Origin: a virus
Taxonomy: Duplodnaviria; Caudoviricetes
Length of the DNA stretch: 34,703 nt
Virus record (IMG/VR): IMGVR_UViG_3300031519_000101
Coordinates: 1 to 34,703 of that record
Direction: 5' to 3' (one strand)
The notes below the pieces were generated by a model. It searched no databases. It was not told the DNA's origin and saw nothing but the letters and a program-made list of their open reading frames with translations. This document shows, piece after piece, positions 3,176-12,914 of this stretch; within the stretch, counting starts at the first letter, position 1, and the number at the start of each line of letters is the position of its first letter. The position numbers and the translations under genes are program-made.

Positions 3176-6100
3176 ATGACAATAAACATAGCTAACAATA
3201 GCCCACGAATAAATTACACGGCAACTGCTGGGCAAACTGCATTTACAATACCATTTGAATTTTATGACAATACAGATGTAAAAGTTTACGTTCAAGGCGT
3301 TTTAAAAACTATTACTACTCATTATTCAATCTCTGGCGGTAATGGCTCTACAGGCTCTTTAACTATGGCAAGCGGTGTTACCTTAGATAATGAGGTTGTA
3401 ATAGTCAGAGACGTTCCTATGGAGCGCACAACAGATTTAACATCAAGCTATAGCGCATCTTCTTTAGACGCGCAGCTAGATCGCATTGTTGCACAAATTG
3501 CTGACCTTGATGATAAAGCATCACGAACAATACAGATAAATGATTATGAATTGGCAAGTGGTTTACTCCTCCCTGCACTTGACAATCGCAAAGGTAAGAC
3601 CATCCAATTTAACACCAGCACTGGTGCTTTAGAGGTTGGTCCTACTGGCGCGGATGTAACTGCACTTGGTTCTGTTACTTCTGAAATAGCTACATTAGCT
3701 GGCATTAGTGGCAATATTACAACAGTTGCTAACTCTAATGCACAGGTTGTTGCTGTTGGTAACTCTATGACAAGTGTAAATGCTATTAATGCAGCGTTAA
3801 CTAATGTAAATAACGTAGCTGGTGCAATTTCAAATGTTAATTTAGTTGGTGGTTCTATTGCTGACGTTAATGATGTGGCTGATTCTCTTGGAGAAATTAC
3901 AGCAGTGCAAGCAAAGCTTACAAACATTGATACTGTAGCTGTTGCATCAACAAATATAGGCACAGTAGCAGGATCTATAGCTCAAGTTAATACTGTAGCT
4001 TCTAAGATTGCTGATGTTACAGGTGTTAATTCTAATATAGCTGCAATAACTACGTCAAATTCTAACTCTACTAATATAAATACAGTAGCTAGCAACATAG
4101 ATGATGTTAATGATGTAGCTAATGTTATAACAAAAGTAACAAATGTTGCTGATAATATTGGTGATGTTACAACTGTAGCCCCAGCAGTCTCTAATGTTGG
4201 AACTGTAGCTAGTAATATAGGTAATCTTAATACTGTTGCTAGCAATATAAATAATATTAATATCGTTGCAGCCAATGGTGGCATTGGAGCTACAGGCCCA
4301 CAAGGGCCACAAGGTTTAACTGGCTCAACTGGACCAGCGGGTTCAACAGGGCCAACTGGACCAGCAGGACAGCAAGGCGCAACAGGTCAAACAGGTGCGC
4401 GTGGATTTGCAGGAGCAGATAGTACAGTAGCAGGACCAGCAGGACCAACAGGAGCAACTGGACCACAAGGTGCTGACAGTACAGTAGCAGGACCAGCAGG
4501 GCCAACAGGTCCACAAGGCGCAACTGGAGCAACAGGTCCGACAGGAGCCGATTCAACTGTAGCAGGACCAGCGGGAGCTACAGGTCCACAAGGTCCAGCA
4601 GGAGCAGACGGTGCAGATTCTACAGTAGCAGGGCCGACAGGAGCCACAGGGCCTCAAGGAATACAAGGAGAAACTGGTTCTACTGGAGCAACAGGCCCAG
4701 CGGGAGCTGACTCAACTGTAGCAGGTCCAACAGGAGCAACTGGTCCTACAGGACCGCAAGGTCCAGCAGGAAATGATGGAGCTGATTCAACTGTAGCAGG
4801 ACCGCAAGGTCCAGCAGGAACGAATGGAACAGATGGAACAGATGGAACAGATGGTGCATCTTACACTCACCCAAATCACTCAGGCGAAGTCACATCGACA
4901 GCCGATGGTGCAACAGTCATAGCTGATAACGTAGTTGACGAAGCAAACCTAAAGGTAAGCAACACACCTACCGATGGCTACATGCTAACGGCACAGTCAG
5001 GTAATACAGGTGGTTTGACTTGGGCGGCGGCGGCTTCTGGTGGAGGTGGTGGTGCAGACCTCTATGCGGCTAACGAAAGTTCTCCTTCAGCCCAACCTTC
5101 TGCTACAGGTACAAACTCCATTGCAATAGGTGACAGTGCTATCAGTAGCAATACAGAAAGTTTTGCTTTTGGTAAAAGCCGTGCTTCTGGGATAGAAAGC
5201 CTTGCAATGGCTATAGATAGTAACTCTACTTCTTTTGGTGCATCAGGTACTAACAGTGTTGCAATCGGTAAAACTGCCAAAGCTACAGGGAGTTATTCTT
5301 TTGCCGCTGGCGGTACTCGTCCTGCGGCTACATCCCAAAGTGCTATAGCCATTGGAAGTTATGCAAAAGCTACTGGTCTTAGCTCACTGGCTTTGTCTAC
5401 TGAGGGAAGTGGATATTATACGACTGCATCTGGTTCACAATCCGTAGCTATAGGAAATAGACTAGTATCATCAGGGAATGAATCTTTTGTAATAGGTACG
5501 TTAAGTACAGTTTCTCATAATTACTCAATTGCATTGGGTAAGGATATTACTTCTACAGCCACAAACCAAATTAACATAGGTGGTTCAGCACAAGACGTTA
5601 GAATTAGTGAAGTATACACCCTACCAAAAGTAGATGGTACTAACGGACAAGTCTTAACCACTAATGGCTCTGGAGTTGTTGCTTTCGCAGATGCTGGTGG
5701 CGGTGGCGGTGCAGACTTATATGCGGCAAATGAAAGCAGTCCATCAGCTCAACCTTCTGCTACAGGTACTAATGCCATAGGTATCGGTGATAGTGCAGTA
5801 AGTGCAGGAACAGACAGTTTTTCAGGACCTAAATCAAGGGCATCTGGAACAAACAGCTTTGCGGCGGCTATAGCTACTAACAGTACATCCTACGGTGCTA
5901 CTGGTTCTAACTGTATTGCTATTGGTAATTTAAATAAGTCTACTGGGAACAGTAGTTCTTCTTTTGGTGGATACAACAACATATCGTCAGGCAACTCAAG
6001 TTTTGCAACAGGATACGAATGTCAAGCAACTGTTGATTTTTCTATTGCTATAGGTAATAATGCCAAGTCAGATATATACGGAAAATTTGCACATGCGTCA

Positions 6101-6538
6101 GGTAAATTTGGTTACTTCGGTGTTGCTGGCGGCGCACAATCAGGAACTTTTGTACTACGTTCAGACACTACAGATGCTACATCAGAAGCCCTTACTACCA
6201 CCCTCACCACGGCGGGAACTACAAACCAAATAGTCCTACCAAACAACTCTTGTTATGGATTTACAGGAACAGTGATTGCTCGTGAAGCCGCAAGTGCAAC
6301 AAACGACTTTGCTGTATGGGAAATCAAAGGTGGAGCAGTAAGGGCGGCTAGTGCTTCTACAACAGCCCTTGGCACTTACAACATTAACAAAATCAGTGAG
6401 AGTACAGGTGCAACTAATTGGAGCATAGCTCTTTCGGCAGACACTACTAATGGTGCTGTAGCAATAACGGTAACTGGAGAAGCATCCCATAACATTAGAT
6501 GGGTAGCAACGGTTAATACAACGGAGGTAATTTACTAA
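3176..6538 (+). CDS. Tail fibre protein (T7 gp17-like N-terminal anchor, helical repeats, collagen-like segment, YadA/Hep_Hag-like head repeats)
   Basis: N-terminus [29 protein letters not shown]...[13 protein letters not shown]; NI.TVA..I repeats; G-X-Y run; A.G.NS.AIG repeats; GAGG RBS. Confidence 0.9.
4279..4860 (+). repeat. Collagen-like Gly-X-Y coding repeat, interrupted six times by ADSTVAGP
   Basis: Read directly from the translation ([18 protein letters not shown]...). Boundaries are approximate. Confidence 0.9.
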
Positions 6539-7677
6539 TGGGTTCAGTTAATTTAGACAACACAGGCAGTGGTAGTGCTATTACACTTAGCTCCGACGGA
6601 ACAGATTTACTCTTAGATGGCACAGCTATTGGAGGTGGCGGTGGTGGTTCACCAGACTTGTTTGATGAAAGCTATGACGGAACTTCGACTAAGCCTTCCG
6701 CTTCAGGGACTAACTCTTTTGCGATAGGCCAAGAAGCAACTACTTCAGCTTACGGCAGTTTAGCTTTAGGCTGGCGAGCAACCGCATCTGGAACAAGATC
6801 AGTTGCACTCGGATATAGTTTAGCTAGTGGTGCAAATAGTATCGGGATAGCTGTTGATAATAATGGAATAGGTGCAACAGGTTCAAATTCAGTAGCTATT
6901 ACTAGAGACACAAGGGCATCTGCTACTAATGCTATAGCCTTCGGTCAATACAATAATGTTTCTCATAACAACTCTGCCGCTTTTGGGTATGACGTACAGT
7001 CCACGGCTATAAACCAAGTTAGTATTGGTGGTACAACTCAAGACGTTAGAATTAGTGAAACCTACACTCTACCTAAAGTAGACGGAAGTGCTAATGAAGT
7101 GCTTACTACAGATGGCTCTGGAGCTGTTTCTTGGGCGGCGGCTGGTGGTTCATCTGACTATGTGCATATTAGCACACAAACAATTACAAGTGCTGTAGCA
7201 CAGGTTGAATTTGATTTAAGTAGTTCAGACTATGGTAGTTATTATATCGTTGCACATGGGTGTACTTACACTAGCTCTAATCCTGGGGATTATTCTCTGC
7301 AATTTGTTTTCTACGATGGTGCATATAACAGTGGCTCAATAGCTACTAACAGAATGTCTATCAGGTATCAAAGAGGTAAAGAATATTCGAGTTCTATAAG
7401 CACAGTTACCCAAACCGACACCAATTTATCTATGAATATAGGATTTAGCCCTACATCAGCTACAACTTTTGGACTTAGTGGCATGATTGGAGGGCGTACT
7501 AATAGTATAATTGATTTACGAGGGTTCTTTTCTACGGCAGGCAGTCAAATAGGTATACCTAGAATAACTGCTGTTGCCCCTAACACCAGTAACAACATGA
7601 CATATATGTTAGTTAAACCTAACTCCTCAACTTTAGCTTCAGGTAAATTCTCACTCTATGGCCTAAAGGACGCATAA
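6538..7677 (+). CDS. Second tail fibre / receptor-binding protein with YadA-like repeats
   Basis: Shares the GGGGG-DL...PSA.GTN and [15 protein letters not shown] modules with the upstream fibre. TAATG coupling. Confidence 0.75.
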   Translation: MGSVNLDNTGSGSAITLSSDGTDLLLDGTAIGGGGGGSPDLFDESYDGTSTKPSASGTNSFAIGQEATTSAYGSLALGWRATASGTRSVALGYSLASGANSIGIAVDNNGIGATGSNSVAITRDTRASATNAIAFGQYNNVSHNNSAAFGYDVQSTAINQVSIGGTTQDVRISETYTLPKVDGSANEVLTTDGSGAVSWAAAGGSSDYVHISTQTITSAVAQVEFDLSSSDYGSYYIVAHGCTYTSSNPGDYSLQFVFYDGAYNSGSIATNRMSIRYQRGKEYSSSISTVTQTDTNLSMNIGFSPTSATTFGLSGMIGGRTNSIIDLRGFFSTAGSQIGIPRITAVAPNTSNNMTYMLVKPNSSTLASGKFSLYGLKDA

Positions 7678-8475: not shown

Positions 8476-9024
8476 ATGTTACGATTAATATTAATTGGAT
8501 TCTTTACTTTAATCGGCAGCGCATTAGCTGCTGATGATACAATCAAGTCAGAGAGTACAGTAATATCGGATGGAAAGATGGACACAACTATCAATAGTCC
8601 ACCACCCTCTGCGATTTCTCCACAGATTAGCGCAAGTAACAGTGACTTATGTACTGTTGGTGTAGCTGGTGCGGTACAAACACAGATACTTGGTATCTCT
8701 GCTGGTCGTACTGTGCGTGATATGAACTGTGAAAAATTAAAGAACGCCAAAACCATGTACGATATGGGGATGAAAGTGGCAGCCGTATCAGTAATGTGCC
8801 AAGACCAAAGAGTGTTTGATGCTATGCTTAATGCTGGTACTCCTTGCCCCAAGGATGGGTTGGTAGGAGATAAGGCTAGGCTAGCATGGGAAATGGAATC
8901 GGTTAAGCAAGAGATTGAGCGAGATCAGAATGATGTAATCAAGAGGATGTTCAATGAGAACAGCGAAACTAAGATTGGGCTTGGTGTTATTATTAGCACT
9001 CTGGCCTTCTTGTTATTACTCTGA
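8476..9024 (+). CDS. Exported protein 1: signal peptide, Cys-bracketed beta-hairpin, C-terminal hydrophobic anchor
   Basis: MLRLILIGFFTLIGSALA|AD; DLCTVGVAGAVQTQILGISAGRTVRDMNC; four Cys; ends IGLGVIISTLAFLLLL. Confidence 0.75.
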   Translation: MLRLILIGFFTLIGSALAADDTIKSESTVISDGKMDTTINSPPPSAISPQISASNSDLCTVGVAGAVQTQILGISAGRTVRDMNCEKLKNAKTMYDMGMKVAAVSVMCQDQRVFDAMLNAGTPCPKDGLVGDKARLAWEMESVKQEIERDQNDVIKRMFNENSETKIGLGVIISTLAFLLLL

Positions 9025-9823
9025 CCCATATACTTATGGGGCTACAGGCAATGCAGCGTCCAGCTCTTTAAGCTGGGGCATGGCTGGTGTTTTGCCTGAT
9101 GCTGTTGGCTTAGATATAAACGGATTACTCTACAGGTATACCACAGTTAAGAATACAGATGACGCTATGAAGGTACACGTTGGCAACCGCAACGCTACTG
9201 GTGATGGCTATATATTTAGAGAGACAGATGATTGGTCAGGCGTACCAAGCAACACAATCGTCAAGTCTTTTTCTCTGGCTAATATACCATCGGCTAACTG
9301 GGGTGCTGGATCTATTGAGGTAGAAGGTGAAGGCAGCGTTACTGATGCAGTTGTTATATACAACTACAGGATAGACGTATGCTATGACCCACAATTAGAT
9401 CCATCTTGCGCTGGGTACATAAAGCCTGTGCCAGATATACCAGATGTAGATGTGTATAATGTAATGGAAGATGAAGATGCTCTTGCTGCTATAGATACAG
9501 ATACAGAATTTCAGTATGATGAAGATGGTAATCTTATAGTAGATGAAGAAGAAGAGGAAGACACGCGAATTGAAATGGGTTTGACTGCATCTGCCAATGC
9601 GTTGACTCTCTTTAAAATGCAAGGACAAGATGATATTATCATGGCGATAAACCAACAAACGAATCTAGCTATGTACTATAATGCATCTATCAATGGTGGC
9701 GTGTACGCTGACGTAGCTGGACTTGCTGACTCACAAATATCAGACAACAAAAAAGCTTTGCGTAATAACTTAGCACAACAAATACTGCACGAACAGATGG
9801 TCGATATGCAGTACAACAAATGA
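8954..9823 (+). CDS. Exported protein 2: signal peptide, beta-rich domain, acidic linker, helical C-terminus
   Basis: MRTAKLRLGLVLLLALWP...; CYDPQLDPSCAGY motif; D/E-rich tract; GAGGA RBS upstream. Confidence 0.7.
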   Translation: MRTAKLRLGLVLLLALWPSCYYSDPYTYGATGNAASSSLSWGMAGVLPDAVGLDINGLLYRYTTVKNTDDAMKVHVGNRNATGDGYIFRETDDWSGVPSNTIVKSFSLANIPSANWGAGSIEVEGEGSVTDAVVIYNYRIDVCYDPQLDPSCAGYIKPVPDIPDVDVYNVMEDEDALAAIDTDTEFQYDEDGNLIVDEEEEEDTRIEMGLTASANALTLFKMQGQDDIIMAINQQTNLAMYYNASINGGVYADVAGLADSQISDNKKALRNNLAQQILHEQMVDMQYNK

Positions 9824-9831
9824 GGTTTAAC

Positions 9832-10320
9832 ATGAAATATTTTCTAGTAATACTTTCACTCTGTGCATTACCAGCTCACGCTGACGTAGATATAACAGGT
9901 AACGTGGAAGCTAAGTGTGTAATACAAACAACTAAGAATGGTGTGTATGGCAATCCAACAGCTAGTACATTAAGCACTACCCCTGCTGATGGAGGTGTGC
10001 TTCCTGTAATTAGATTTGATGTAGCTCTTGCTAACTATTACACCGCAAACATTACACATCCAACATCATTCAGCTCTTCCCCAGCACTTACTGATACAGT
10101 CGCATGGACAGGCAGCACTAGCGTAACTCAAACAAGTGACGCTGGTATGTCAGGGTATGATGCAGCTAAGATTGTATATGATAACACCACAGTTTTTGAT
10201 CTTACTGTTGCAGGATCTACTTGGTTTAGCACAGCAAGTAGTGCCACCTATGCAGCATCAAAACCTTTTGTTGGAGGAGTCTATACCGCAGTGGTACAGG
10301 CTAGTTGTATTGCAAAATAA
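9832..10320 (+). CDS. Exported protein 3: fimbrial/pilin subunit-like
   Basis: MKYFLVILSLCALPAHA|DVDITGNVEAKC; C-terminal strand GVYTAVVQASC resembles chaperone-usher pilin termini; S/T-rich beta composition; GAGG RBS favours the 9832 start. Confidence 0.6.
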   Translation: MKYFLVILSLCALPAHADVDITGNVEAKCVIQTTKNGVYGNPTASTLSTTPADGGVLPVIRFDVALANYYTANITHPTSFSSSPALTDTVAWTGSTSVTQTSDAGMSGYDAAKIVYDNTTVFDLTVAGSTWFSTASSATYAASKPFVGGVYTAVVQASCIAK

Positions 10321-10696
10321 GCTGATAATATTTTTTTTGGTATGGGCATTTTCAACCCATGCACATGAGATGACACCAGCTTATCCTATAGTTAAACCAT
10401 CTCACGTTACTGGTGTGGTCAAGGTTGACTTGTCTTTGTTTAACTCAAGGGAAGAGATCAAGTATTACGAGATCGGTTTGTTTGATTTGAACTGGGATAG
10501 CATCCCCTTCTCTGCAACGTACCGAATAATTAAGGTAGGGTATAAGACACGTAAGAACTTTAGCGTATACATTCGCAAGTCAGACATGGATGAGGCCACA
10601 TATGTATGCACAACATCTAAGGTTAAGAAGCAGCTCGAATCAAAAACACTAGTGTCGTCTAGGATTTGCTCGCGGCTTGATGGTATGCCAGCATGA
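10310..10696 (+). CDS. Exported protein 4: Ig-like / pilus-chaperone-like
   Basis: A probable TTG start at 10310 gives MQNKLIIFFLVWAFSTHA|HEMTP. Alternating beta strands (VKVDLSLFN, YYEIGLFD, FSVYIR) and a C-terminal Cys pair. Confidence 0.55.
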   Translation: MQNKLIIFFLVWAFSTHAHEMTPAYPIVKPSHVTGVVKVDLSLFNSREEIKYYEIGLFDLNWDSIPFSATYRIIKVGYKTRKNFSVYIRKSDMDEATYVCTTSKVKKQLESKTLVSSRICSRLDGMPA

Positions 10697-11085
10697 GATT
10701 AGCTGCGCTCTTGTGTATTCTATCTAGCTCTGCCCTTGCTGAGAGTAGCTCACTTGCTTTGTCATTGCCTAGCCCACCTTTAAACTATCAATCAGATAGT
10801 TTCTCTGCAAATAATTTGCGCTGCAGTAATGCGGTAGGTGGTGGAGTTAACCTTGAGTATGGGATTACAGGTGTGTTGTCTGGATTAAACACAATGAGTG
10901 TAGGTAAAGACATAGGTGTCTATGCTCGTATAGTTATACCGCTAGACAAACCTAAGTCTCGTATTAATTGTGATGACCTATACCAAGTGGAGCTGGCTCA
11001 ACGTAGGTTGGAGATACAAAAGCTGCGTGATGAACTGGAAGCACTAAAGAATTTATCTAGTGATAGCATGGACTTTGAAAACTGA
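10693..11085 (+). CDS. Exported protein 5: signal peptide, Cys-bracketed amphipathic beta-hairpin, C-terminal coiled coil
   Basis: MRLAALLCILSSSALA|ES; C...VNLEYGITGV...DIGVYARIVIPL...C; LEIQKLRDELEALK; ATGA overlap with the previous gene. Confidence 0.7.
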   Translation: MRLAALLCILSSSALAESSSLALSLPSPPLNYQSDSFSANNLRCSNAVGGGVNLEYGITGVLSGLNTMSVGKDIGVYARIVIPLDKPKSRINCDDLYQVELAQRRLEIQKLRDELEALKNLSSDSMDFEN

Positions 11086-11564
11086 TGGTAGATCTTACAG
11101 AATTTGATAGCCTTGCCGACAAGCAGATCAAAGCTGGTGGTGTTAAGATGTCTTTTGCATCTGTGCTTGCTATCATTACCTTTGTATCTACTGTGGTTGC
11201 TGGCTTGTATGGTGGGTTTGTTATGTATCAGAAGATAGAAGAGGTAGCTGGTTTAGATCTTGGTGAGTACCAGCAGCAGATGGATGTGATGGATGCCAAG
11301 GTGCAGCAGTCAGTTGAGTACACTCGTGATATTAAAAATGGATTGCGTGATGATCTGCTTAGAGTAGAGCAGCAGACAGATAGAATTGAAACGATGGTGC
11401 GTAAGTCAGAAGATAAAGTACGCACTATGATTGATGCAGCAGATCTTAGATTCGAATCGCAACGTGAACGATTGCGATCAAATCAAGATGCTGAGATGAA
11501 AGATCTTGAGAGTAAGTTGATGGGTAAATTGCAGAGGGCATTGGATAATCCTCTGTCTGATTAG
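11085..11564 (+). CDS. Single-pass membrane protein with a long coiled coil
   Basis: TM segment FASVLAIITFVSTVVAGLYGGFVMY followed by a charged heptad region; TGATG coupling. Confidence 0.7.
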   Translation: MVDLTEFDSLADKQIKAGGVKMSFASVLAIITFVSTVVAGLYGGFVMYQKIEEVAGLDLGEYQQQMDVMDAKVQQSVEYTRDIKNGLRDDLLRVEQQTDRIETMVRKSEDKVRTMIDAADLRFESQRERLRSNQDAEMKDLESKLMGKLQRALDNPLSD

Positions 11565-11573
11565 GAGATAACT

Positions 11574-11906
11574 ATGGATGAGTTTAAAAAATTTGATGTC
11601 AATGGTGATGGCAGCATAGATAAGGCAGAGTGGGATGCGCTTGAGTACGAGGATCGTAAGCGTAGGCTAGAGGATGAAGACGCACAGCGTGACGCACAAC
11701 GCAGGATGACATGGTTCGCCCTGTCAGGGATGCTCCTGTACCCCTTAGCGGTGGTGCTAGCAAATGTATTAAGCTTAGATCAAGCAGCTAACATACTAGG
11801 TAGCATGGCTAGTGTATATTTTGTATCCGTAGCTGGGATAGTAGCGGCGTTCTTTGGTGCAACAGCATTAGCGAAAGGCAGAAGCAATGATGAATCTAGT
11901 AGGTAA
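11574..11906 (+). CDS. EF-hand-containing two-TM membrane protein (holin/antiholin-like)
   Basis: AGGAG RBS; DVNGDGSIDKAE canonical EF-hand loop; two hydrophobic helices. Confidence 0.7.
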   Translation: MDEFKKFDVNGDGSIDKAEWDALEYEDRKRRLEDEDAQRDAQRRMTWFALSGMLLYPLAVVLANVLSLDQAANILGSMASVYFVSVAGIVAAFFGATALAKGRSNDESSR

Positions 11907-12291
11907 TTTAATAGGGCCTGTTACTGGCCTGTTAGATAAAGTAATTGAAGACAAAGATCAGAAGGCAAAGCTTGCACATGAGATAGCAACGATGTCAGAC
12001 AACCATGCGCAACAAGCATTGATGGGACAGCTGGAAATAAACAAAGCTGAAGCAGCATCAGGTTCTTTATTCAAGGGTGGATGGCGTCCCTTCATAGGTT
12101 GGGTATGTGGTGTGGCTTTTGCTTATCACTTTGTATTACAGCCATTGATTGTATTCGGTGTAAGTGCCGCTGGTGTTGACATACCAGAGCTACCAGAGTT
12201 TGATATGGGTAGTCTTATGACTGTTATGATGGGGATGCTTGGTCTAGGTGGTCTGAGATCTGTAGAAAAAATTAAGAAGGTAGAGAAATAA
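11887..12291 (+). CDS. Holin (GTA 3TM holin / DUF3154-like)
   Basis: GWRPFIGWVCG and LGLGGLRS.EK motifs; directly upstream of the endolysin. Confidence 0.8.
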   Translation: MMNLVGNLIGPVTGLLDKVIEDKDQKAKLAHEIATMSDNHAQQALMGQLEINKAEAASGSLFKGGWRPFIGWVCGVAFAYHFVLQPLIVFGVSAAGVDIPELPEFDMGSLMTVMMGMLGLGGLRSVEKIKKVEK

Positions 12292-12914
12292 TGAGTGAAG
12301 CAATGAAGATACTTCAAGATCGTATCGGTGTAGTAGCTGATGGGAACTTTGGCCCGAACACAGCGAGATCTATTGTTAAGCACTATGGTTTGAATCGCAA
12401 GCGCGGCGCACATCTGTTAGGTCAGGCAGCACATGAGTCAGGTATGTTTCGTTTAACGAGAGAGAACCTTAACTATTCTGGTGAGTCTATGATGCGTGTG
12501 TGGCCTACAAGATTCCCAACTTTGGAATCAACTGTACCTTACGCTCGTAATCCAGAGGCACTAGCTAACAAGGTGTACTCTAATCGCATGGGCAATGGAG
12601 AAAATGAGGGGGCGCTTTGGGTGGGCCGCGGCTTCATCCAGTTAACAGGCAAGGCAAACTATAGATCCTTTGCTAGTGACATGGGACTGCCTGATATTAT
12701 GACTGACCCTGATCTTGTTGCAACTGAGTATGCATTTGAATCTGCACTATGGTTCTTTGAATCAAATGGTTTGTTTGAAATGGCTGATGATGGTATCAAT
12801 GATACAGTTATTACCAGCATAACCAAGCGTGTTAATGGTGGGACGCATGGCCTTGATGATCGTATGCAGCAGACTAAGAAGATACATTCTTGGATTGCAC
12901 ATGTTGGTGCATAG
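12291..12914 (+). CDS. Endolysin, glycoside hydrolase family 19, with a short N-terminal peptidoglycan-binding motif
   Basis: LQ..IGV.ADG.FGP.T; LGQAAHES; ENLNYS; GRGFIQLTGK.NY; ITKRVNGG..GL.DR. Confidence 0.9.
   Translation: MSEAMKILQDRIGVVADGNFGPNTARSIVKHYGLNRKRGAHLLGQAAHESGMFRLTRENLNYSGESMMRVWPTRFPTLESTVPYARNPEALANKVYSNRMGNGENEGALWVGRGFIQLTGKANYRSFASDMGLPDIMTDPDLVATEYAFESALWFFESNGLFEMADDGINDTVITSITKRVNGGTHGLDDRMQQTKKIHSWIAHVGA

Follow-up and report, generated by a model that had tools for sequence, protein, structure and literature searches.

Chaperone-usher fibres are thought to require an usher for catalysis and export. Their classical chaperone needs two domains, the second being the part engaged by ushers, together with an usher that drives strand exchange, and the canonical donor-strand pattern is an alternating hydrophobic N-terminal extension with a conserved Gly. 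TasA-type fibres are usher-free donor-strand filaments, and we know of no PapD-like partner for these or for cannulae. Spanins are either two-component, as Rz/Rz1 of lambda, or unimolecular, as gp11 of T1. A precedent for fibre export genes on phages is given by the curli secretion genes (available text of PMC9599517). Adhesion and shielding are proposed as benefits of phage curli genes in the available text of PMC9599517 and PMC9004378, and according to the latter, the single cultured phage with curli genes in which cell clumping was looked for showed none.

Here, a cassette of six genes, A to F, whose products are predicted envelope proteins, is described from a stretch of 34,703 nucleotides of an uncultured marine phage (Caudoviricetes; IMG/VR record IMGVR_UViG_3300031519_000101), the whole of which is referred to as the window. 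The genes of the cassette (modules A-B-F and C-D-E) and those that follow it are:

A, 8476..9024, + strand: signal peptide, Pro-rich segment, Cys-closed beta-hairpin, Cys-paired helices and C-terminal hydrophobic tail; module A-B-F
B, 8954..9823, + strand: signal peptide, beta-rich N-domain, Cys motif, acidic linker and conserved C-terminal region; module A-B-F
C, 9832..10320, + strand: pilin-like subunit with a predicted free N-terminal extension; module C-D-E
D, 10310..10696, + strand: single domain with the predicted fold of PapD-type chaperone domain 1, TTG start; module C-D-E
E, 10693..11085, + strand: signal peptide, Cys-closed amphipathic beta-hairpin and C-terminal coiled coil; module C-D-E
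F, 11085..11564, + strand: one N-terminal membrane helix, long coiled coil and NPL end; module A-B-F
Context gene, 11574..11906, + strand: EF-hand and two membrane helices
Holin, 11887-12291, + strand: three membrane helices
Endolysin, 12291-12914, + strand: GH19 type

The initial annotation had described five consecutive signal-peptide genes followed by a protein with a membrane helix and a coiled coil. All six reading frames were found where it had placed them, with neighbours overlapping or separated by gaps within 8 bases, and exactly A to E were flagged as signal-bearing among the 47 window ORFs (at least 60 aa, none nested in another frame) by the simple pattern heuristic used for signal and lipobox calls. 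The A-x-A or T-H-A ends that had been read in four of them are A-L-A (A), A-H-A (C), T-H-A (D) and A-L-A (E), unlike the signal-like start of B, which ends Y-Y-S. The paired cysteines expected in the mature parts were present (A 59/85/108/124, B 143/152, C 29/159, D 100/120, E 44/93) and are invariant in the family alignments, and F combines a single hydrophobic helix, near residues 20-45, with a heptad-like tail. The EF-hand gene often accompanies the cassette.

The order A to F was intact in all 62 non-redundant marine phage loci, in line with the proposed co-conservation. Signal-like starts were retained in diverse homologues (A 29/30, B 34/35, C 35/36, D 43/44, E 42/42), and for each of the six genes, with 19-80 pairs per gene, the median dN/dS lay at 0.06-0.11. 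Ocean phages commonly carry the cassette: individual scans gave 220 to 594 viral stretches, and E-like protein clusters numbered 2,514. It has moved between podovirus-, siphovirus- and T4-like backbones. No family was found for A to F in Pfam, NCBIfam or PDB sequence searches, and all PHROG matches of the cassette genes are annotated as 'unknown function'. For promoters and terminators, the counts matched chance expectation. Two studies provided four marine RNA libraries with contigs that aligned to the cassette, all at below 99%, and transcription is not demonstrable from these contigs.

The cassette is composed of two modules, each of which is also found separately. At all of the 50 pelagiphage-type loci, and likewise in seven annotated phage genomes, A-B-F stood without C, D and E, and C-D-E occurred without A, B and F in Vibrio phages and eight bacterial genomes. 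The earlier proposal of a single five-part pilus machine with the product of the gene at 8954 (B) as its tip is, in that form, unsupported by this distribution: the modules each travel alone and, since A-B-F is found apart from C-D-E, B is not simply a pilus tip. Cultured carriers are pVp-1 and Ceto for C-D-E, and HTVC023P, HTVC115P and CRP-207 for A-B-F. Profiles made solely from marine phage loci matched C (1.6e-8), D (2e-4) and E (1e-13) of the Vibrio phages, and the marine phage profiles matched bacterial C (hhalign 85.7%, E-value 5.5e-6) and D (83.4%, E-value 8.5e-6); eight cross-family comparisons used as controls gave E-values of 0.16 or more. With a broader profile, applied at the phylum level, E was detected in nine further genomes among 401 Pseudomonadota sampled, and in eight of these it had pilin-like and D-like neighbours, often with two pilin-like genes, amid housekeeping genes. 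A Vibrio plasmid carried a C-D-E-type set adjoining an EAL-domain gene. In Erwinia/Klebsiella phage and a Vibrio replicon, the likeness of the partners of E to C and D lies in size, signal and Cys pattern, the profile matches being non-significant. Early E profiles had given, among 400 genomes of the class of genome G002, a sole match on a phage-like contig in G002, and a GTDB pattern scan returned phage-like contigs and one short, weak match.

The suggestion that D is a one-domain chaperone was borne out by its predicted fold. The model (pLDDT 89) corresponds to chaperone domain 1 including the donor strand; Foldseek gave 35 PDB matches at E-values of 1e-3 or below (best 8.2e-5, query TM-scores 0.44-0.65), and 31 of 32 among the PDB matches listed were pilus chaperones. 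SfaE, Caf1M, FimC, FaeE and PapD aligned with D through their first domain only. D requires its TTG start at 10310, and most called homologues are 127-129 aa long. The mature protein of 110 aa has its Cys pair on the last two strands and is devoid of the second domain of the two-domain PapD-type chaperones.

The reading of C as a pilin was partly supported, more weakly than that of D. A confident beta-sandwich was predicted (pLDDT 95) in which mature residues 1-11 are unpaired, leaving a free, donor-strand-like N-terminal extension with an alternating hydrophobic pattern: positions -10, -8, -6 and -4 relative to the first Cys are small or hydrophobic, with a Gly at -6 in 39 of 42 sequences. 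Pilins ranked first in Foldseek (PapGII pilin domain, CfaB, FimG, CsuA/B and Caf1; best E-value 6e-3), with no match at 1e-3 or below and TM-scores of 0.44-0.50. The nearest Atlas neighbours were SCPU (0.91) and DUF4402 (0.90); SCPU was present in just 15% of the Atlas cluster of C, with 164 shared features against 170 typical of true family members. In a wide structural search, however, Ig-like adhesin domains of the staphylococcal Sdr/FnBP proteins (Z-scores of at most 7.1) outranked the PapG pilin (Z 5.1), and Z-scores below 8 may reflect merely a common arrangement.

E is the most conserved member of C-D-E. Its hairpin has two alternating strands of about 10 residues, and the intervening loop is strongly variable in length. 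TolC-type PF02321 matches below the cut-off were seen in two of seven E homologues scanned (E-values 0.0017 and 0.088) and may be caused by the coiled coil; no significant match to any pore and no sequence relative in the PDB was found. Judged by its sequence, E is a candidate oligomeric pore or anchor. The hairpin patterns of A and E are compatible with the earlier idea that the two would form an outer-membrane conduit. Homology between A and E was rejected for now (hhalign E-value 0.06).

In A, the C-terminal hydrophobic tail is conserved and its coding sequence overlaps the start of B. A matches phrog_20531 (unknown function), and its domain terminates long exported proteins, rich in Gly/Asn/Gln or Asn/Ser, in Ralstonia phage RSP15 and in genome G706; A is a candidate membrane anchor or pore. 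An 'OmpA family' label on the A homologue of CRP-810 had no Pfam support, and OmpA is not mentioned in the available main text of the CRP-810 paper (PMC11288001). In B, the beta-rich N-domain (about 24-142) is followed by an acidic linker with 20 D/E in 50 residues. B-like proteins have variable heads and conserved tails: the C-terminal region of B matched pelagiphage B-like proteins (hhalign 87.6%, E-value 3.5e-6), whereas the N-domain did not match their heads (E-value 0.25). B is a candidate stalked adhesin. CBM_4_9 matches below the cut-off were obtained in two pelagiphage B-like proteins, and a CBM_4_9 relationship of the B head is unsupported, given its E-value of 0.25 against the pelagiphage heads. 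F matches phrog_3999 (unknown function) and its NPL end is conserved.

The absence of an usher of about 800 aa, pointed out in the initial annotation, holds for the window, where no usher family was found among 31 ORFs. At 299 E-bearing loci, 12 of the 136 ORFs of at least 550 aa were signal-like and none was usher-like on inspection, and inspection of the long ORFs in ten bacterial stretches revealed no usher. The probable role of C-D-E is the assembly of an adhesive fibre on infected cells along a pathway that has not been described. To the fuller reading, that an usher-less fibre module of bacteria, with an oligomer of E as its candidate pore or anchor, has been joined to a surface-display module, we give about even chances.

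The interactions, the pore and the function of the cassette proteins are what we infer in the following scheme. Late in infection, the cassette likely decorates the cell with an adhesive surface structure without the use of an usher, C-D-E being a bacterial operon type that phages also carry. Sec would take C and D across the inner membrane, and D, a lone chaperone domain, would donate a strand for the folding of C, as its predicted fold suggests. The motif and the unpaired extension of C suggest that its subunits may link head to tail via the N-terminal strand. An oligomer of E, with one amphipathic hairpin per copy, could form a small barrel in the outer membrane for exporting or anchoring the fibre, a substitute for the usher and the weakest step of the scheme. 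A as anchor and F as inner-membrane partner would display B with its variable head, acidic stalk and conserved tail. The doomed cell would thereby probably adhere to new hosts or particles, or be shielded from other phages.

The cassette lies directly 5' of the holin and endolysin genes in the window, and an accessory role in lysis, the strongest rival reading though fairly unlikely in our estimate, would have F acting as inner-membrane spanin and A, by its hairpin and C-terminal membrane tail and with or without C-D-E, standing in for the outer-membrane spanin in rupturing that membrane. The topology of F is i-spanin-like or Rz-like (an inner-membrane protein with a periplasmic coiled coil near lysis genes, a likeness of topology only), the A gene overlaps B, and a lipobox or lipoprotein spanin was flagged by the simple pattern in none of the 47 window ORFs. 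The window's own holin or GH19 type was found within 3.5 kb downstream in at least 23 of the 62 loci, a lower bound since other lysins are outside this count, and in HTVC023P an M15 peptidase gene comes next after A-B-F. Phage curli pores, too, have been suggested to act in lysis (available text of PMC9004378). However, C-D-E also occurs in bacterial genomes without A, B and F, on chromosomes amid housekeeping genes, and therefore is not a dedicated lysis device; in phages it was located among tRNAs, after thymidine kinase and between head and neck genes. In HTVC202P, A-B-F directly precedes the terminase, and the annotation shows no lysis gene close by; membrane fusion would need no variable, lectin-like B head.

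A purely periplasmic role, with nothing surface-exposed, is unlikely: E-tethered C-D, as a stable pair or short chains, would together with A-B-F remodel or stiffen the envelope and so block later phage DNA entry or delay lysis. This would agree with the lack of an usher-like gene beside any copy and with the long coiled coils of E and F, which could span the periplasm, but the strands and length-variable loop of E resemble outer-membrane hairpins, bacterial C-D-E operons have major- and minor-type pilin pairs, and the A domain terminates long low-complexity exported proteins. Quite improbable is that the phage provides nothing beyond subunit and chaperone and relies on a host usher or some other pore, or that fibres folded in the periplasm are picked up by virions at lysis. 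In Vibrio phages C-D-E does lie downstream of large fibre-like structural genes or among virion genes; against this, D is without the usher-engaging second chaperone domain, and E is always kept with C and D, bacteria included.

In its boldest form, put forward tentatively and with considerable doubt, the reading of C-D-E as an usher-less fibre module would make it an undescribed minimal Gram-negative fibre pathway, possibly a pre-usher relic, comprising a chaperone of half the usual size and a hairpin protein of 110 residues, which as an oligomeric pore would replace the 800-residue usher; abundant ocean phages would carry it fused to A-B-F, a second system, for surface display and likewise undescribed, and would use both to make infected cells adhesive. 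If true, the three-gene version would offer a direct test of donor-strand fibres crossing the outer membrane and inform the origin of the chaperone-usher pathway. If phages make infected cells adhesive, this would matter for transmission in dilute seawater and for particle formation, and the question can already be addressed with cultured carriers of each module. No account of the cassette, of such an usher-less operon or of carrier virion proteomics was found in searches of a largely open-access literature; the available text of PMC6811365 holds nothing bearing on the cassette.

Among the known systems, the oligomeric barrels (TolC repeat, CsgG) resemble E in that its hairpin and coiled coil are like one TolC repeat, but E has a single hairpin and is only a candidate oligomer, and the PF02321 matches of its two homologues are under the curated cut-off. 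Spanins share the inner-membrane topology of F, the signals at both ends of A and the overlapping genes beside the window's lysis genes; the cassette differs in having no lipoprotein partner or family match, and C-D-E exists outside phages. Phage curli (pelagiphages, Melnitz) are likewise a bacterial surface-fibre export kit distributed across unrelated marine phage families, and for them too the role is debated, with sibling capture, superinfection defence and lysis as the options (available text of PMC9599517 and PMC9004378). In contrast to curli, the cassette has a predicted folded Ig-like subunit and a chaperone, not an amyloid, and CsgG, CsgF and curlin had no Pfam match among A to F. Usher-free filaments (Pyrodictium cannulae, PDB 9h8b, and TasA-type) also have exported beta-sandwich subunits thought to be chained by an N-terminal strand, although such fibres need not cross an outer membrane; 9h8b aligned to C with a Z-score of 5.6, within the background range, and an rmsd of 4.0 over 122 residues. 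Chaperone-usher pili (Fim, Pap, F4, Caf1/Saf/Dra and the archaic Csu with SCPU-type pilins) have in common with the cassette an exported beta-sandwich subunit with an alternating N-terminal extension, the predicted domain-1 fold of D, whose last two strands carry a Cys pair, and an operon with one or two pilin-like genes. They are distinguished from it by the one-domain chaperone of 110 aa, the absent usher gene, the Cys pair of C linking its first and last strands, the constant small partner E, the lack of Pfam or NCBIfam membership, and carriers that include lytic-type phages.

The six-gene cassette A-F is genuine, occurs widely and is strongly conserved, and as far as our literature searches found it is not described in print. 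The features concerned are:

8476-11564, plus strand: cassette A-F (A 8476-9024, B 8954-9823, C 9832-10320, D 10310-10696, E 10693-11085, F 11085-11564), with tail-fibre genes on one side and an EF-hand membrane protein, a 3-TM holin and a GH19 endolysin on the other
11574-11906, plus strand: small protein, EF-hand at the N-terminus followed by a pair of membrane helices

The window, a complete virus record of 34.7 kb, further encodes a T7-type portal, scaffold and tail tube, a RecE-like nuclease, a replication initiator and a capsid that shares 54% identity with its counterpart in Pelagibacter phage Hodr; we infer a marine alphaproteobacterium as host. The EF-hand protein is possibly a calcium-sensing holin regulator, and its gene lies downstream of the cassette in most loci and upstream in T4-like contigs. 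Two T4-like contigs have a lipase-like gene (GHSLG motif, by eye) 3′ of the cassette (L244 10198-10905, L245 9783-10493). The tail-fibre genes (3176-7677) contain collagen and YadA-head repeats, and this region is very variable between relatives that retain the cassette.

A simple heuristic applied to the 47 ORFs of the window flagged five signal-peptide-like starts, exactly those of A-E. The signal-like start was conserved in diverse homologues of A (29/30), B (34/35), C (35/36), D (43/44) and E (42/42), and the Cys pairs of A-E were invariant across the family alignments, bearing out the initial annotation of consecutive exported-type genes with paired Cys. Median dN/dS values of 0.06-0.11 place all six genes under purifying selection. 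Pfam and NCBIfam searches gave no family for any of A-F, and the PHROGs matched by A, C, E and F were all of unknown function. A ends in a membrane tail whose coding sequence runs over that of the B signal peptide (8954-9024), an overlap conserved in distant lineages.

Sufficient flanking DNA was available for 189 C-bearing loci, which were reduced to 62 at <95% identity in C. All 62 had the order A-B-C-D-E-F, a count that speaks for this cassette lineage only since A, C or E served as query in finding them; within the lineage, the claimed co-conservation as a unit holds. Judged from gene content, the backbones were podovirus-type, siphovirus-like and T4-like, which argues that the cassette moves as a block. 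Genome bin G001 contains five different C-bearing contigs (L166, L244-L247), of which those read were phage-like; their C genes should not be taken for host genes.

The model of D (pLDDT 89) gave 35 PDB matches at E<=1e-3, and pilus chaperones made up 31 of the best 32. The best match was SfaE (8.2e-5), with Caf1M, FimC, FaeE and PapD also found, and the alignments covered the first domain of these chaperones. In D the two final strands carry the Cys pair, as in Caf1M-type chaperones. The predicted fold of D is a good structural match to a chaperone. The model of C (pLDDT 95) is a beta-sandwich with the first 11 mature residues unpaired. Foldseek ranked pilins on top (PapGII pilin domain E 6e-3, CfaB, FimG, CsuA/B, Caf1) and gave no match at E<=1e-3. 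A wide structural search placed staphylococcal adhesin domains (Z 7.1, rmsd 3.5, 115 residues) above the PapG pilin (Z 5.1), all Z scores being within the range of common arrangements, and the neighbours in the Atlas of protein clusters were an SCPU (0.91) and a DUF4402 cluster (0.90). In the extension, every second position from −10 to −4 relative to the first Cys (−10, −8, −6, −4) is small or hydrophobic, and 39 of 42 sequences have Gly at −6. Thus, the earlier calls of D as a one-domain chaperone and C as a pilin both stand as predictions, the latter plausible and weaker than the former. If C is a pilin, the only acceptor of its extension would be another C, giving a homopolymer, because each phage cassette has one pilin gene.

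With E as query, Vibrio phages were found. C-D-E was present, and A, B and F were absent, in pVp-1, Ceto, pVco-14 and PS14A.1. Profiles made from the marine loci only, run against 1,090 test ORFs, matched the Vibrio-phage C (1.6e-8), D (2e-4) and E (1e-13). A small lipoprotein-like gene follows E in pVp-1, Ceto and pVco-14 and overlaps its end (L162 5284-5487). Of the 185 phage records matched by the E of pVp-1, 180 were Vibrio, 3 Erwinia and 2 Klebsiella. Those Erwinia and Klebsiella phages that were inspected had the order D-E-C, among tRNAs or 3′ of thymidine kinase, and in them size, signal and Cys pattern were the sole basis for identifying C and D. Two Vibrio replicons also carried E with pilin-like and D-like neighbours. 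Among 401 sampled genomes E was found in 9 more, 8 of them with such neighbours, flanked by genes other than phage genes (e.g. Ada-type methyltransferase, ribokinase, DedA protein). The bacterial and marine families matched by hhalign for C (E 5.5e-6) and D (E 8.5e-6), versus E>=0.16 in all eight controls. In line with the reported absence of an usher, inspection of the phage loci and bacterial stretches revealed no usher-like ORF next to any C-D-E copy.

Conversely, A with B-like and F-like genes occurred without C, D and E in 50/50 pelagiphage-type loci, many closely related, these being the ones with 3 kb of downstream DNA among 80 fetched, and also in HTVC115P, HTVC202P, HTVC023P, Mosig, S28-C10, CRP-207 and CRP-810; in several of these, B-like and F-like genes were assigned from their position and architecture together with weak profile matches. 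The annotated lysozymes of CRP-810 (L334 5162-5584) and CRP-207 (L335 3292-3873) match the F profile, and Pfam found no lysozyme domain in them; they are likely mis-annotated. As C-D-E and A-B-F each occur without the other, the single five-part machine initially proposed was not borne out.

E has two alternating strands (~10 residues each) around a loop of variable length, a closing Cys pair and then a coiled coil, and a TolC-type family matched this region weakly in two homologues. A single stave of a putative oligomeric barrel would be expected to have this appearance. Some bacterial E homologues (L437 5372-5932, L442 5373-5894) carry an Ala/Thr-rich linker and then a Lys-rich end that could tether them to the cell wall. 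A has a Gly-rich hairpin between Cys residues, shorter than that of E; homology between A and E was considered, and no relation was detectable. In Ralstonia phage RSP15 and bacterial genome G706 the A domain forms the end of long exported proteins of low complexity, an arrangement suggestive of a passenger followed by its anchor. In these fusions (L082 5374-6321, L445 3931-4881) the segment before the A domain is long, Gly/Asn/Gln- or Asn/Ser-rich and exported, and has the look of an amyloid-like passenger. In B-type proteins an acidic linker lies between a variable head and a conserved tail; two pelagiphage heads gave below-cut-off matches to a carbohydrate-binding family. F has a single membrane helix, a coiled coil and an NPL end.

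The most economical reading, for which we see an even chance, is that a bacterial usher-less fibre module (C-D-E) was joined to a display module (A-B-F), both made late, as gene position suggests, and placed on the infected cell. C would be the subunit, D the half-chaperone and E the pore or anchor, with B as adhesin, A as anchor and F as inner-membrane partner. That E is a pore is a tentative proposal; if true, it would mean a new export route.

A lysis accessory is unlikely: it agrees with the gene order of the window, the topology of F, the lack of a flagged lipoprotein and the presence of the window's holin or endolysin type downstream in 23 or more of the 62 loci, but it leaves the chromosomal C-D-E unexplained; A-B-F alone may have such a role. 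A structure confined to the periplasm is slightly less likely than a lysis accessory, and recourse to a host usher, or attachment to the virion, is improbable.

In the fibre-on-the-cell reading the first steps would run as they do in the chaperone-usher pathway, whereas the cassette has neither an usher nor a two-domain chaperone and is therefore not assigned to that pathway. The nearest biological precedent is the pelagiphage curli gene set (PMC9599517, PMC9004378). No clumping was observed for phage Melnitz (PMC9004378), and the roles proposed for the curli genes are sibling capture, superinfection defence and lysis (PMC9599517, PMC9004378).
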